Shown one piece after another: positions 1 to 20,174 of a DNA stretch of 32,000 nucleotides; within the stretch, counting starts at the first letter, position 1, and each line of letters opens with the position of its first letter. The notes beneath the pieces are model-generated. The model saw nothing but the letters and a program-made list of their open reading frames with translations. It did not search any database and was not told the DNA's origin. The DNA is taken from the NCBI GenBank assembly GCA_019056805.1, contig DXJG01000002.1, forward strand, positions 253,103 to 285,102, written 5' to 3'. A program made the position numbers and the translations under genes. The DNA is from Candidatus Baldrarchaeota archaeon (GTDB lineage Archaea > Asgardarchaeota > Baldrarchaeia > Baldrarchaeales > DXJG01).

Positions 1-2850
1 GTAAAAAAATGTAAAGAAATTGCATTACATAATGCTAATCAATTATCAGAACAATTTAAAAACCTAGGAGTTTGGATGGACTGGGAAAATCCTTACCTAA
101 CATTGAAAGATGAATATATCGAATCTGCGTGGTGGTTAATTAAAAAAGCCTGGGAAAATAACTTACTATATCAAGGAGAGCGAGTAGTCCATTGGTGTCC
201 ACGTTGTGAAACAGTTTTATCAGGATATGAGGTTGCTCAAGAATATAGAGAAGTCTCGGACCCCTCAATCTACGTAAAATTTCCCGTAAAAGGAAAAGAC
301 AAGGAGTTTATCTTAATATGGACCACTACACCATGGACATTGCCAAGTAACACGGGAGTAATGGTCCATCCAGAGTTTACCTATGCCAGAGTTAAAGTAG
401 ATGACGAAGTTTATATTTTAGCCCTAGAACGTTGCGAAGAGGTCTTTAGGGAAGTAAACAAAGAATTTGAAGTTTTAGAGACATTTCCAGGACGAAAACT
501 AGAGGGATTAAAATATCTTCCTCCATTGCTTGAAGAAGTTCCTCTTCAGCGCAAATTACTTGAAGAAGGTAAAGCTTATCGCGTAGTTTTAAGTGAAGAA
601 TACGTTTCACTAGAAGAAGGTACTGGTTGTGTACATAGTGCTCCGGGTCATGGTGAAGAGGACTTTGAAGTCGGTTTAACTTACGGTTTACCTGCAGTAT
701 GCCCCGTAGACGGTAAAGGAGTATTTACCGAAGAAGCAGGTAAATATGCTGGTTTATTCGTAAAAGATGCAGACAAAAAAATAATTGAAGACTTGAAGAA
801 CAAGGGCCTTTTGCTATGGGCTGGCAAAGTCACACACCGTTATCCTCATTGCTGGCGATGTAAAACTCCTCTGCTCTTACGTCTAGCTAAACAATGGTTC
901 ATAAAAGTTTCAGCATTTAAAGACAAAATGTTGGAAGAAAATGAAAAAGTAAAATGGATTCCAGAATGGGCTGGTGCCAGTAGATTCAGAAACTGGTTGG
1001 AAAGTGCGAGAGATTGGGTTATATCAAGGCAAAGATACTGGGGTATACCCCTACCAATTTGGATATGCAACAAATGTGGAAAGAAAATGGTAATTGGATC
1101 GAAGGATGAACTACTCAAGATGGCAGTAAGTGTACCAAGCGAGTTTGAACTTCATAGACCATGGGTTGATGAAGTTATCTTAAACTGTGACTGTGGCGGT
1201 GAAATGAGACGTGTTCCAGATGTCATTGATGTATGGCTTGACTCAGGAATAGCATCCTTTGCATGTCTAGGTTATCCCTGCAAGGAAGAAGAGTTTAAAC
1301 AATGGTGGCCTGCTGATGTCGTTTTAGAAGGGCATGATCAAACTCGTGGTTGGTTCTACACACTCCTATGTACATCTATGATAGCTTTTGACCGAAGACC
1401 CTACGAAACTGTGGTAATGCATGGATTTACCTTGGACGCAGAAGGTAGAGAAATGCATAAAAGCCTAGGAAACTACATTGCACCCGAAGAAGTCATAGAA
1501 AAGTATGGAAGAGATCCCCTGCGCCTATATGAGCTCCAATGTACTTTTTGGGAAGATATACGCTTTAATTGGAACGGTGTAAAAGAAGCGCTCAGAGATT
1601 TAAACATATTATGGAACATATACGTTTTTGCATCAACTTACATGGAAATGGATAAATTCGATCCACTAAAACATTCACTAAGAGATCTCTTACCATTCAT
1701 GAAGATTGAAGATAGATGGATCCTTTCGAGACTACAAAACGTAATTGACAAAGTTACAAACTACATGGATGAATATCTATTTCACGAAGCCCTGAGGTTG
1801 CTTTTAGACTTCATACTAGAAGACGTCAGTAGATGGTATATCAGACTTGTTAGACGTAGAGTATGGATAGAAACCGAAGCTAAGGAAAAACTTGCGGCAT
1901 ACACAGTTCTATACACAGTTCTAAAGAACTGTTTACTTCTACTTGCACCCTTCATACCCTTTGCAACAGAAGCTCTATATCAAAGATTCGTTAAACCGGT
2001 TGAAAAAGATGCGCCAATAAGCGTTCATCTCTGTGACTGGCCGAAACCATCAAAAGAATTCATAGACGATAAACTTGAACAACAAGTAGTATTCGCAAGA
2101 GATATTGTTTCAGCAATCACACAAGCTAGACAATCTACCAAGCCACCAATAAAAATAAGACAACCTCTTAGCAAAGCTATCGTAGTAACAGATTCCCAAG
2201 AAGTTATCGAAACCGTCAAAAACCTTAAAGATCTAATAAAAGATCAAGCAAACATAAAAGAAATTACCGCTCTACATCTAAGCGAAGAAGAAAAATTCAG
2301 GAACGTCTATGTTGAACCTAACTTCGCTTCACTAGGACCAAAGTTTAAACAAAAAACAGCCAAAGTAGCAGAAATAATCAAAAAATTAGACGGAAGAGAA
2401 GTACTTAAATCAATCAACGAAAAGGGATTCTTTGAAATAATGATTGATAACGAGACAATCAAACTAACGAAAGATTATGTGAAATTTAGAGAAGAAATTT
2501 TAGAAGGATACGCAGTTGGAGAATTTCCGAAAGGCAGAGTATACTTGGACGTTACCGTGACAAGAGAGCTTAAAGCGGAGGGTTTGGCTAGAGAAGTAAT
2601 TAGAAGATTTCAAGAGATGAGAAAAGAAGCAAATCTTGAAGTAGAAGCAAAGATAGAAGCTTTTGTTAAATGCCCAGAGTATGAACAGGTCGAACTACTT
2701 AAAGATAGAAAAGAACTAATTATGAGAGAGGTACGAGCAAAGAAACTAGAGGTCATAGGACCAAGAGATGAAACACCGGAAGCATCACATGTTAAAAAAT
2801 GGGACATCGATGGAGAAACATATATAATGGGATTCAATCTCAAAACTTAA
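1..2850 (+). CDS. ileS: Isoleucyl-tRNA synthetase (5'-truncated by window edge)
   Basis: Frame is open from base 1 (VKKCKEIALH...). Motifs WTTTPWTLP, GTGCVHSAPGHG (CP1 editing), DWVISRQRYWG, EGHDQTRGWF and a KMSKS-equivalent EMHKS. Confidence 0.97.
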   Translation, partial: VKKCKEIALHNANQLSEQFKNLGVWMDWENPYLTLKDEYIESAWWLIKKAWENNLLYQGERVVHWCPRCETVLSGYEVAQEYREVSDPSIYVKFPVKGKDKEFILIWTTTPWTLPSNTGVMVHPEFTYARVKVDDEVYILALERCEEVFREVNKEFEVLETFPGRKLEGLKYLPPLLEEVPLQRKLLEEGKAYRVVLSEEYVSLEEGTGCVHSAPGHGEEDFEVGLTYGLPAVCPVDGKGVFTEEAGKYAGLFVKDADKKIIEDLKNKGLLLWAGKVTHRYPHCWRCKTPLLLRLAKQWFIKVSAFKDKMLEENEKVKWIPEWAGASRFRNWLESARDWVISRQRYWGIPLPIWICNKCGKKMVIGSKDELLKMAVSVPSEFELHRPWVDEVILNCDCGGEMRRVPDVIDVWLDSGIASFACLGYPCKEEEFKQWWPADVVLEGHDQTRGWFYTLLCTSMIAFDRRPYETVVMHGFTLDAEGREMHKSLGNYIAPEEVIEKYGRDPLRLYELQCTFWEDIRFNWNGVKEALRDLNILWNIYVFASTYMEMDKFDPLKHSLRDLLPFMKIEDRWILSRLQNVIDKVTNYMDEYLFHEALRLLLDFILEDVSRWYIRLVRRRVWIETEAKEKLAAYTVLYTVLKNCLLLLAPFIPFATEALYQRFVKPVEKDAPISVHLCDWPKPSKEFIDDKLEQQVVFARDIVSAITQARQSTKPPIKIRQPLSKAIVVTDSQEVIETVKNLKDLIKDQANIKEITALHLSEEEKFRNVYVEPNFASLGPKFKQKTAKVAEIIKKLDGREVLKSINEKGFFEIMIDNETIKLTKDYVKFREEILEGYAVGEFPKGRVYLDVTVTRELKAEGLAREVIRRFQEMRKEANLEVEAKIEAFVKCPEYEQVELLKDRKELIMREVRAKKLEVIGPRDETPEASHVKKWDIDGETYIMGFNLKT

Positions 2851-3233: not shown

Positions 3234-3294
3234 GATGTCAGAGTGAGCTGGTTCGTTCATCTGTTCTTACTCGTTGTTCGCTTCATCATCCAAC
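3234..3294 (-). ncRNA. Box C/D guide sRNA (dual guide, LSU rRNA peptidyl-transferase centre)
   Basis: Minus strand: C box ATGATGA (3289-3283), 12-nt guide AGCGAACAACGA, D' GTAA, C' ATGAAC, guide GAACCAGCTCACT, D box CTGA (3241-3238). Terminal stem GTTG/CATC. C-to-D span is 52 nt. Guides are antisense to GUUGUUCGC and GUGAGCUGG. Confidence 0.85.
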
Positions 3295-12450: not shown

Positions 12451-12644
12451 TGGTCGGCCCGCCGGGATTTGAACCCGGGACCTCTACCGGAATCCAATGA
12501 CAAATTGGATCCTGGCGGTGTCTGCGATGTTCGAGCGGCGGCTAAAGTTAAGTAAACGCCTTGCTAGGCGTTTTCTACAGCTTCGGTCTCCAATTCCCAG
12601 AATGGGAACTGGAGTCGCCCGCTCTGCCACTGAGCTACGGGCCG
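12451..12644 (-). tRNA. tRNA-Tyr(GUA) with three introns and encoded CCA
   Basis: Exons 12644-12616, 12581-12575, 12519-12514 and 12483-12451 join to a 75-nt cloverleaf CGGCCCGUAGCUCAGUGGCAGAGCGGGCGGCUGUAGACCGCCAGGUCCCGGGUUCAAAUCCCGGCGGGCCGACCA. It has C1:G72 and A73 (archaeal Tyr identity) and loop CUGUAGA. Introns are 34, 55 and 30 nt with BHB-like junctions. Confidence 0.92.
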
Positions 12645-15965: not shown

Positions 15966-17795
15966 TTATTTGAGGACGTCTAGTATTATGTTGTTTTCAT
16001 CGATTACTACGCTTATGTAGTCGCCGATTTCTTTGGATAGTATTAGGTAGATGTCTTCATCGTCTAGTTGTTCAACTTTAGCTAAAACGTGGACTATGGT
16101 TGAGTTTCCAATATCTATGTCCAACCATATACGTGTGTTTCCATTCTCAACATATTCGTATTTTGCAACTATGGTTCCGTTCACAGTTCTTTGTGCGGTT
16201 CCCTTTTTAATCATGATGTAAGCTGCTTGTACAGCTTCTTTCATTCCACCGACATCGGCGCAGCGAACACGAATGCAAGTTCTATCGGTAGCTCTAACTA
16301 AGGCGAAGAAAGATGGTGTATAGTGACCTGTATCTTCATCGTAAATGAATATTGGTATATGGTAGTAGAGCTCGGTGTTTATTCTGTATAGTAGAGCTAG
16401 AGGTGTTGAATAATAGCGGCCTTCAGGTAAGGATGGTAGTTCTGCTTTTGCGACTCTTTTTGCTTCTGCTGGAGATATAAGAGCCATATGATCTAGACTG
16501 TATAGGTAAATACCGTCTTTTTTGGCTATTATTACGAATTCAAGTAGACTTGGATTACGTTTATTGCAGAACAGGTATACTGCAACCAGTTCTCCATTCC
16601 ATATCTGGTATCTGAGTCCTTCTGGTTCAGCTGGGCTACCTGATCTATCACTATATATTGGTATACCGTTCCAAAAGTTTAGATCGTTTTCAGCTGTCCA
16701 TCTGAAGTCTCCAAAGGCATCTCCCATTCTTTCAAGCCATTCTTCATCCCATCTCTGAACAACCCAGTCTGGAGCATCTTTTGGACTATATTGACCAAGT
16801 AAAGTTCCAGTAACTGGATCCCATATATGAACCATGGGATTTATCAAAGGTCCGAAGGGAATTTCATAATAACTGGTTGTTACATAAACAAGCTTTTCCG
16901 TCTCTGGGTTCCATGTCAAATAAGCGCGACTAAAAGTTCTTAGAGGGAACATGTTTTGAGCATGGACTCTAATATCTTTATTAAACCACAATCCTTCTCC
17001 ATATTCAGCCTCCATTGGTATTATTTGAGCTCTTTCACCAGTTGCATCCGTAACCGGTATAATTATAATTTCTCGAAGCTTGTTGCTGTCACCTAATAGA
17101 AAAGAGCCGAGTACTGGAGGTTCACTTATTGTAGCTATCCAGCATAATTCACCCCTATACATACCTAAATGAACACTAGTAACCCAGGAAGCGGCGCTTG
17201 TTTTCTTCATCTCGGCTATAGATCTAGCTACACTACTCGTGGTTACCCTAAGTTCTTCCACATCTACTTCTGGAAAAAGAGTGGCATTCCCAACTGACAT
17301 AACTTTAAAGTAATTCTTCATGGTAGTTGCTCTTGCAAAACCTATTGACCTGCCAAGTAGCCCAGGTAATCCGAAAAGTGCATTAAACAATATAATTAGT
17401 AAAAGGACGGTGAGCAAGAGTTTCTTTGAAAAAGAGAACGTCTTTTGGCCTACTTTTTTGGTATGGGTTTGATATCTAGATTTTAACATGTCTCTGAACC
17501 TAATGTTTGGATTCTTGGATGCAATGGCCGCCAGGTTTTTAGCCATTAGAAACGATATAGCGAATACAAACAGTCTTATAAAAACAAGCCAGATACAGTA
17601 TATATGTGCCGGAATAAGCAATGTGGCACAGCCATGAGCAAAACCTACAAGTATAAGAAACACAAGGGTGACAAGCAATAAGGATCTGGGAAATATAAAG
17701 TTAGGTTTTGCTTTTCTGATTTTGTTTTCAATGAACTTAAGATCAAGAATCCAGCTAGCCCAAGCAGCCGTAGTTATGTAAATCGATATAAACAT
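15966..17795 (-). CDS. Hypothetical membrane protein (609 aa), N-terminal TM helices plus large soluble domain
   Basis: About 4 hydrophobic segments in the first ~150 aa; remainder hydrophilic and aromatic-rich. Confidence 0.8.
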   Translation of the reverse strand: MFISIYITTAAWASWILDLKFIENKIRKAKPNFIFPRSLLLVTLVFLILVGFAHGCATLLIPAHIYCIWLVFIRLFVFAISFLMAKNLAAIASKNPNIRFRDMLKSRYQTHTKKVGQKTFSFSKKLLLTVLLLIILFNALFGLPGLLGRSIGFARATTMKNYFKVMSVGNATLFPEVDVEELRVTTSSVARSIAEMKKTSAASWVTSVHLGMYRGELCWIATISEPPVLGSFLLGDSNKLREIIIIPVTDATGERAQIIPMEAEYGEGLWFNKDIRVHAQNMFPLRTFSRAYLTWNPETEKLVYVTTSYYEIPFGPLINPMVHIWDPVTGTLLGQYSPKDAPDWVVQRWDEEWLERMGDAFGDFRWTAENDLNFWNGIPIYSDRSGSPAEPEGLRYQIWNGELVAVYLFCNKRNPSLLEFVIIAKKDGIYLYSLDHMALISPAEAKRVAKAELPSLPEGRYYSTPLALLYRINTELYYHIPIFIYDEDTGHYTPSFFALVRATDRTCIRVRCADVGGMKEAVQAAYIMIKKGTAQRTVNGTIVAKYEYVENGNTRIWLDIDIGNSTIVHVLAKVEQLDDEDIYLILSKEIGDYISVVIDENNIILDVLK

Positions 17796-17974
17796 AATAT
17801 TTTCCTCCCTAAAGAATCCTTCTCCCCGCGAATTTATAAGTTTTTTTCCTTTTAATAATCTTAACTATTATGTAACATTATTTGCTGCCAAAGTTTTCTT
17901 AATAGGCCAGAAGGGAGCAAGTCAAATATCACGATGTTACCGACACTAATTTAAAAAGAACATAAATTCCTATT

Positions 17975-18044
17975 TTTGAGGGATGAGGATATGAGAGTCA
18001 GGTGAGTAGATAAACGATGAACTGAATATCAATCCGACCTCAAA
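17975..18044 (+). ncRNA. Box C/D guide sRNA (probable target LSU rRNA helix 69)
   Basis: Terminal stem TTTGAGG/CCTCAAA and 3-nt bulge GAT. C ATGAGGA (17983-89), 12-nt guide TATGAGAGTCAG, D' GTGA, C' ATGAAC, guide TGAATATCAAT, D CCGA (18034-37). Box deviations are compensatory. TTTAAAA at 17950-56 upstream. Confidence 0.8.
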
Positions 18045-18686: not shown

Positions 18687-20174
18687 TTGGGCGAATATCT
18701 AGAAAAAGTTGGCAGACTAGTTGGTAAGACTACCACTCATACAGTTACTGTAAAATTGTTCTCTGAGAGAGTTGGAAGAAATGATTATCTACAAATTGAA
18801 CATGAAGGACGTAATTTTCTTTTTATGATTAAAGAAATTTGGACTGAAAACTCTTCAACGATTGCTAGGTGTTCTGTTGTTGGTTCAATGCCTAAAACAC
18901 CATTCAAACCAGATAGCATAGTTTTCAAAGCCTCTCCAGACCTTATTAGAGATGTTTTAGGTTTAGATGTCCCCTATGAGAAGGGAGTATATCTCGGCAA
19001 ACTTAGAGGATTACCCTATAAGGTTTTTCTACCCATCAAGAGACTTGGACGAATTTTTATTACCGGCAAAACCGGCTCTGGCAAGTCCTATACCGTTGGT
19101 GTTCTAATCGAAGAGTTTCTAAAAAAGGGTGTTCCCGTTGTTATTATTGATCGTCATGGAGAATACTCCAGCCTAAAAATTCCAACTGAAAATGGATCCG
19201 AGGAATTTGATGTAGAGCCTAGAAGCTACGAAGATAGAATTATTGAATTTGCTGATTTAAATGTAAATCCTGGTGGTGATATTCCTGTCGAGGCTGTTTT
19301 GACCACAGATGCTAAGGATCTTGTTGTTTCTGGACAATGTACGATCATAAATCTTAGAGGCTTATCTACTGATATGCAACAACTTATAGGGGAAGAAATT
19401 CTTACAAAATTATATGAAGCATCTACCAGTGGCAGTATTCCACCTTTCTATTGCATTTTAGATGAGGCACATCTTTTTGCTGGCAAAGGGAAGTCCTCCA
19501 TACGGGAAGTTGTCAGGCTTTTCGCCCAAGAAGGTAGGAAATTTGGTGCCAACATAATTTTTCTAACACAAAAACCTCAACTTTTAGACACAACTATTCG
19601 AGCTCAAGCTGGCACATGGATTATCCATCAACTAACCGACTATACCGATATTTCTGTCACAGTTAGAAGCGCTGAGGGGCTAAATGAAGATTGGTCCGAA
19701 GATATTCAACGTTTAGAACCCGGTGAGGCCGTTATCGCAGGCGACGCTGTCCGAAGAGTTCCTCTAATCGTTAAGATTAGACCAAGAGAAACTAGACACG
19801 GAGCAATCGGTTTTAATCCCCTTGACTATGTTTCTCCCGAAACTCGGGAGGAATTGGAAAAAAGGAGGGAGAGACTAAGAGCACAATTTGCAATGCAAGT
19901 TCAAGAAGCCAAAGTTCGTTTAGAAGCCCTGAAAAGCGGCGTTGAAGTTCTCAGTGTTGCTGATGCAAAAAGAATTATCGTTAAGCTGGAGGAAGATTTA
20001 AAGAAGAAAATAGAAGAAGTTGAAGTTCTTAAATCCAGAGTCAAAGTATTGGAGAAAGAAAACATCGAACTTAAGAAAAAATATAGAAAGGCCGTAAAGA
20101 CGGCTGAAGAAGCAATTAAAGAAGCTAAGAAATATGAAAGAATAATTGAAAATCTGAAAAGAAAAATAATATAG
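18687..20174 (+). CDS. HerA/DUF87-family ATPase with C-terminal coiled coil
   Basis: HAS-barrel-like N-terminus, Walker A GKTGSGKS, IIDRHGEY, Walker B CILDEAH, EGRKFG, TQKP. Last ~100 aa are heptad-rich. Confidence 0.9.
   Translation: MGEYLEKVGRLVGKTTTHTVTVKLFSERVGRNDYLQIEHEGRNFLFMIKEIWTENSSTIARCSVVGSMPKTPFKPDSIVFKASPDLIRDVLGLDVPYEKGVYLGKLRGLPYKVFLPIKRLGRIFITGKTGSGKSYTVGVLIEEFLKKGVPVVIIDRHGEYSSLKIPTENGSEEFDVEPRSYEDRIIEFADLNVNPGGDIPVEAVLTTDAKDLVVSGQCTIINLRGLSTDMQQLIGEEILTKLYEASTSGSIPPFYCILDEAHLFAGKGKSSIREVVRLFAQEGRKFGANIIFLTQKPQLLDTTIRAQAGTWIIHQLTDYTDISVTVRSAEGLNEDWSEDIQRLEPGEAVIAGDAVRRVPLIVKIRPRETRHGAIGFNPLDYVSPETREELEKRRERLRAQFAMQVQEAKVRLEALKSGVEVLSVADAKRIIVKLEEDLKKKIEEVEVLKSRVKVLEKENIELKKKYRKAVKTAEEAIKEAKKYERIIENLKRKII

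Follow-up and report, generated by a model that had tools for sequence, protein, structure and literature searches.

At positions 17975-18044 on the plus strand, the DNA analysed here (the window, 32,000 nucleotides in all) very probably encodes a genuine and conserved box C/D sRNA of an Asgard archaeon of the Baldrarchaeia. Its D′ guide is best explained, and most likely acts, as directing 2′-O-methylation of the 23S rRNA cytidine equivalent to E. coli C1920. The window lies on contig 9 of an assembly of 1.92 Mb in 18 contigs (35% G+C, 91% complete), and the element was present in all five Baldrarchaeia genomes searched. An initial annotation of the locus as a box C/D sRNA is supported both by its anatomy and by selective conservation across these five genomes.

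The sRNA sits in a 353-nt gap flanked by two minus-strand ORFs, and the ORF listing contained no reading frame of at least 40 aa overlapping 17975-18044. Its parts follow one another, 5′ to 3′, as a 7-nt stem strand, a single G, box C, a spacer, box D′, a linker, box C′, a second spacer, box D and the complementary 7-nt stem strand (Table 1). The locus thus combines the features of archaeal box C/D sRNAs, namely the C and D boxes of a k-turn, the internal D′ and C′ boxes of a K-loop, and a terminal stem. The GA dinucleotides and the 4b:4n G:C pair of box C/D are intact, while the 3b:3n pair is G-C rather than U.U. This anatomy, with its 7-bp stem, AUGAGGA/CCGA and GUGA/AUGAAC, is as initially described. 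Upstream of the stem, the heptamer AATTTAA within the TATA-like element is invariant in all four genus orthologs while adjacent bases vary, and from this position and conservation we infer a promoter function.

Table 1. Features of the box C/D sRNA locus, in window coordinates
Feature	Position	Strand	Remarks
TATA-like element AATTTAAAAA (putative promoter)	17948-17957	+	about 20-25 nt upstream of the terminal stem
Terminal stem, 5′ strand	17975-17981	+	seven Watson-Crick pairs with 18038-18044
Box C, AUGAGGA	17983-17989	+	position 5 is G, not U; orthologs have G, U or C there
D′ guide, 12 nt	17990-18001	+	complementary to the 3′ strand of helix 69; the fifth nucleotide upstream of D′ faces the C1920 equivalent
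Box D′, GUGA	18002-18005	+	CAGA in ortholog G004, same register
K-loop linker between D′ and C′, 11 nt	18006-18016	+	differs among orthologs
Box C′, AUGAACU	18017-18023	+	register backed by G004 (GUGAAGA)
D spacer, 10 nt	18024-18033	+	between C′ and D; usual length 12
Box D, CCGA	18034-18037	+	position 2 is C, not U; G003 and G004 have CUGA
Terminal stem, 3′ strand	18038-18044	+	pairs with 17975-17981

We examined which parts of the element have been retained among relatives. Orthologs were found in all three other genomes of the genus (G001, G002 and G003; 84-85% identity) and, as a diverged copy, in the only available genome of the same order outside it (G004). When aligned, the orthologs agree in the boxes and the D′ guide and vary in the loop/linker, the D spacer and the downstream flank; 11 of the 12 D′ guide bases are invariant within the genus and identical in the order-level ortholog. 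The terminal stem of G004 is 8 bp long and of other sequence; compared with the genus, five of its pairs have changed on both strands with pairing kept. The C′/D′ 4b:4n pair likewise differs at both bases, with C:G throughout the genus and G:C in G004, and this compensatory double change fixes the C′ register chosen in the initial annotation. Reading C′ instead as ACGAUGA would extend the D spacer from 10 to 13 nt (about 12 nt is usual, and is the length of the D′ spacer), but the order-level ortholog fits the AUGAACU register only. Exact-word scans of public genome and metagenome contigs returned no variants beyond those in the three same-genus relatives. In G001 and G003, synteny extends to the neighbouring 609-aa gene. 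Its product (window 15966-17795, minus strand) has no Pfam match and is 81-83% identical in these two genomes; a downstream ORF (18687-20174, plus strand) encodes a HerA-like ATPase (PF01935, PF05872).

The G-C pair noted in place of U.U in box C/D is real and occupies k-turn position 3b:3n. The boxes had also been called fully compensatory, and as a rule this does not extend to the orthologs: the pair is G-C in the window's genome and in G001, G:U in G003, U:C in G002 and C:U in G004. Because the orthologs carry G:U, U:C and C:U, 3b:3n reads in these sequences as a tolerated position rather than one under strict covariation. U:U is strongly preferred at 3b:3n in archaeal box C/D k-turns (PMC5689011), and a G-C pair there blocks Mg-induced folding while L7Ae-induced folding still occurs (PMC4382518). 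The combination AUGAGGA/CCGA is also found in the published sRNAs Mka sR6 of M. kandleri and Iho sR148 and sR304 of I. hospitalis. The series G:C, G:U, U:C, C:U could conceivably trace a natural mutational path through the supposedly strong U:U position. The ortholog pairs also make up a modest collection of natural variants that bears on the sequence rules of k-turns.

A lineage-specific K-loop signature had been proposed from the internal boxes, and this held in part. Another box C/D sRNA in the window (3234-3294, minus strand) has canonical C and D boxes and shares the unusual C′ box AUGAAC. The signature is not lineage-wide, since two other sRNAs of the same genome have canonical internal boxes of the GUGAUGA/CUGA type.

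Next, we asked what the D′ guide pairs with. No 16S or 23S gene or fragment was found in the window's 91%-complete assembly, and we therefore used 23S sequences from the same genus (G003) and the same order (G004); as the genus offers no 16S, five Asgard 16S sequences were searched. The D′ spacer is antisense to UGACUCUC-U-UA, with the C of UGAC at its +5 position. This C corresponds to E. coli C1920 in the E. coli-numbered alignment of PMC4644070, checked together with the G003 and G004 23S. Both the match of the D′ guide to the 3′ strand of LSU helix 69 and the placement of +5 on the C1920 equivalent, as initially proposed, were thereby supported on the 23S of these relatives, and helix 69 is the unique best D′ guide site in the G003 and G004 23S and the five Asgard 16S.

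Helix 69 of the G003 23S reads GGGAGUAACUGUGACUCUCUUAA. Against it, an uninterrupted run of eight Watson-Crick pairs spans guide positions 2-9, a U.U mismatch follows at position 10, and positions 11-12 are paired again; in the relatives' guide only position 11 pairs past the mismatch, for 9 of 12 positions paired. If this target holds, the 3′ strand of helix 69 in the host itself would be predicted to read UGACUCUCUUA. Among 1500 shuffled guides, 12% reached a run of eight, 4.4% reached 10 of 12 positions and 1.7% reached both, so that the helix 69 match taken alone is modestly significant. Substrate binding does not involve guide position 1, and no more than 10 nt are read by archaeal RNPs (PMC7229835); the effective span is therefore positions 2-11, with nine pairs and one U.U.

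The window's genome encodes the proteins of a box C/D RNP, with fibrillarin (335.6 bits), Nop5 (259.2 bits) and L7Ae (109 bits) all scoring above curated cut-offs. The initial annotation had raised the question of whether the genome lacks tlyA. In the 91%-complete assembly TlyA (TIGR00478) was not found, the best match reaching 19.7 bits over 49 positions against a cut-off of 185.8 bits.

A C1920 methylation guide with a k-turn, a K-loop and its own promoter is the best explanation of the locus, and we regard it as likely. What is observed is how the element is built, that it is conserved, that it can pair with same-genus rRNA and that the genome encodes the partner proteins; transcription, RNP assembly and methylation are inferred, as follows. 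The TATA-like element would serve as the sRNA gene's own promoter and drive plus-strand transcription. With the 7-bp stem closing them, boxes C and D would fold into a k-turn that has G-C rather than U.U as its third pair, and boxes C′ and D′ would form an internal K-loop; L7Ae, Nop5 and fibrillarin would assemble on both. Base pairing of the 12-nt D′ spacer with the helix 69 3′ strand of 23S rRNA would then bring the E. coli C1920 equivalent opposite guide position 5, and fibrillarin would 2′-O-methylate this cytidine. The 10-nt D spacer, for which no target could be identified, may be idle.

The locus could alternatively encode a genuine box C/D sRNA with a D′ guide that has some role other than C1920 methylation, acting on another target that was not assembled, or serving only as an RNA chaperone that holds the 3′ strand of helix 69 during 50S assembly. 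We consider this unlikely, although several observations lend it some weight. The contiguous pairing amounts to only eight pairs, three Asgard lineages have the U.U at position 10, and the perfect target of the guide, ...CUCAUA, is absent from helix 69. Moreover, the RNAs searched for candidate targets were limited to 23S, five Asgard 16S from outside the genus and 18 tRNAs, and in G003 a 583-nt intron lies directly 3′ of the paired stretch. Against this reading, a search of the whole 1.92-Mb assembly for complements of the D′ guide, perfect or with one mismatch, gave nothing of biological interest apart from the gene's own antisense strand. Neither the five Asgard 16S nor the 18 tRNAs identified with aragorn offered a better site, and none of these tRNAs has a convincing one. 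The anticodon loop of tRNA-Met was considered and rejected (six pairs, wrong register). Elsewhere in the window, an Rfam tRNA match extends over 191 nt (12454-12644, minus strand; 38.9 bits) and is probably an intron-containing tRNA gene. The further argument against a target other than C1920 is that guides of other Asgard families and of three published archaea aim at the same cytidine in the same register.

To look for such guides, we ran a pattern search across 400 Asgard genomes, with the reversed pattern as control. The pattern was matched in 28 of the 400 genomes, versus 11 matches for the reversed pattern, and about a dozen of the matches are complete sRNAs with the same cytidine at +5. 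In-register C1920 guides occur in Asgard families f3, f14, f16 and f32, and probably in f7. Target cytidine and register in G033 and G050 (f16), G311 (f32), G100 (f14) and G026 (f3) are the same as in the Baldrarchaeia sRNA, and the G033 guide forms 11 pairs with helix 69 of its own 23S. The G026 guide also shares with the Baldrarchaeia guide the 5′ part UAUGAG and the U.U at position 10. Guide sequence tracks helix 69, in that a U of the G026 guide faces A1918 while a C of the Baldrarchaeia guide pairs with G1918. Unlike the Baldrarchaeia sRNA, G311 uses its D guide for C1920, and the second guides of the other Asgard sRNAs differ from that of Baldrarchaeia; the likeness observed is one of target and register. 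Together with the Baldrarchaeia sRNA, these guides suggest that C1920 ribose methylation is probably RNA-guided in at least five, and probably six, Asgard families. In two of the sRNAs, at L068 (G026, around position 1500) and L052 (G100, around position 560), the C1920 D′ guide is accompanied by a D guide antisense to AAAUGCC just after helix 69, and the pair looks like a closely spaced double guide.

The D spacer of the window's sRNA was tentatively assigned a second target in 23S domain III by the initial annotation, and this assignment fared less well than that of the D′ guide. The proposed site reads GGUUUAUAUUCC in six of the six Asgard 23S examined, and among the Asgard rRNAs available no other site matches the D spacer better. 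The match consists of only six contiguous pairs, with a C.U mismatch at position 4, beside +5, and between 23% and 51% of shuffled D spacers do equally well. Furthermore, the site is invariant across the six 23S, yet the spacer of the window's genome differs from the form in G001, G003 and G004 at 5-6 of 10 positions, all by transitions. That the D spacer of a real sRNA also guides methylation at GGUUUAUAUUCC is therefore improbable. More generally, neither the available Asgard rRNAs nor the 18 tRNAs offered a site for the D spacer better than those of shuffles, and no common site fits all four D spacer variants. Helix 63, helix 71 and the 23S trailer of G004 were tried as sites and set aside, because they reach only 6-8 pairs and differ from genome to genome. 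The two spacers of the window's sRNA, unlike those of the other genomes, are partly complementary to each other (window 17987-18035, plus strand; GGAU..UGA..UCAG with CUGA..UCA..AUCC; z-score -2.8). Such a fold would compete with guide use and is probably a by-product of spacer drift.

The D spacers of the relatives have a different relationship to the region around helix 69. In G003 and G001 (L003 and L004, around 1500-1520, minus strand) the D spacer contains a 10-nt exact sense copy of 23S positions ~1897-1906, a stretch immediately 5′ of helix 69 that lies ten bases upstream of where the D′ guide pairs; 32 of 3000 shuffles reached a 10-nt sense copy. The G004 D spacer keeps eight of these nucleotides in register. 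The D spacer is also antisense at 10 of 13 positions to the 5′ end of an intron in the G003 23S. This 583-nt intron (approximately L026:953-1535, minus strand) interrupts the gene between the equivalents of A1928 and G1929, immediately 3′ of the sRNA target, and its ORF (L026:948-1457, minus strand) encodes a 169-aa LAGLIDADG endonuclease (PF00961, 58 bits). No intron is present at 1928/1929 in the G004 23S. In another Asgard family, the 23S of G005 (L023) carries an insert of about 30 nt at 1928/1929, just after helix 69, which may be a mini-intron or the relic of one.

These observations bring up the possibility that the sRNA RNP does more than methylate, and that while pre-23S folds or is spliced it could link exon to intron or keep a misfold from forming by competition. 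If so, the D spacer in the window's genome, released from such a role, would have been free to drift, which would account for its changes all being transitions. We find it quite improbable, and the sense copy and the intron could not be connected convincingly.

The C/D motif by itself is not beyond chance, whereas its conservation is. A relaxed C/D motif scan returned six matches in the genome, versus 1-5 in reversed or block-shuffled controls, and with such similar numbers in the controls we rejected our own scanner as a discriminator. At gathering thresholds no Rfam family matches the locus; the only sub-threshold box C/D matches are to the Pyrococcus sR11 and sR36 families (13.1 and 10.9 bits). 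Although these two results are what would be expected of box-like words and an inverted repeat arising by chance in an AT-rich spacer, this reading is barely credible given that boxes, stem and one spacer are kept over five genomes while the flanks diverge, that the stem shows compensatory changes with a TATA-like box upstream, and that G002 retains the sRNA although its copy of the neighbouring 609-aa gene is reduced to a C-terminal remnant.

We then compared the sRNA with known systems that modify the same nucleotide. In bacteria, TlyA is a protein-only 2′-O-methyltransferase of 23S C1920 and 16S C1409. It places the same mark on the same nucleotide, but is a stand-alone enzyme that uses no guide RNA, and its mechanism is unrelated. 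Yeast and human rRNA are not known to carry a 2′-O-methyl group at the equivalent cytidine, so the site would be archaeal and bacterial rather than eukaryote-like. Across the known systems, the C1920 mark is associated with TlyA in bacteria and with guide RNAs in Nanoarchaeota, Thermoproteota and Methanopyrus.

An RNA-guided C1920 mark, whose novelty the initial annotation had implied, is not new: Neq sR20 of Nanoarchaeum equitans guides Cm1920, and its authors state that mass spectrometry and RiboMeth-seq confirmed the mark (“data not shown”; Seistrup et al., PMC5389701). The Baldrarchaeia D′ guide has the defining features of a Cm1920 guide, being antisense to 23S 1917-1926 with C1920 opposite position 5. 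Like Neq sR20, the Baldrarchaeia sRNA has one guide antisense to the 3′ strand of helix 69 with +5 on C1920 (Dennis et al. 2015, PMC4644070; PMC5389701). Neq sR20 differs in targeting C1920 with its D guide rather than D′, in having canonical boxes, and in a partner guide aimed at 16S G1530; its guide position 10 is a paired A, where the Baldrarchaeia guide has U.

In addition, D′ guides of Mka sR47 of Methanopyrus kandleri and Sac sR20 of Sulfolobus acidocaldarius have been predicted to target 23S C2186 (PMC4644070, Additional file 1), an alignment column that we mapped to E. coli C1920. Both targets are predictions for sRNAs detected by RNA-seq in non-Asgard archaea (PMC4644070). These guides share the register of the Baldrarchaeia sRNA and a related core, GAGRGUYA, with AAGAG where the Baldrarchaeia guide has AUGAG, and the second guide of Mka sR47 is antisense to the 3′ strand of helix 68. 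None of our findings alters current understanding. The target is already known in other archaea, and what is new is a conserved Asgard guide RNA, most likely for C1920, which adds to the poorly charted set of Asgard small RNAs a counterpart of the guides predicted in Methanopyrus and Sulfolobus and published for Nanoarchaeum.
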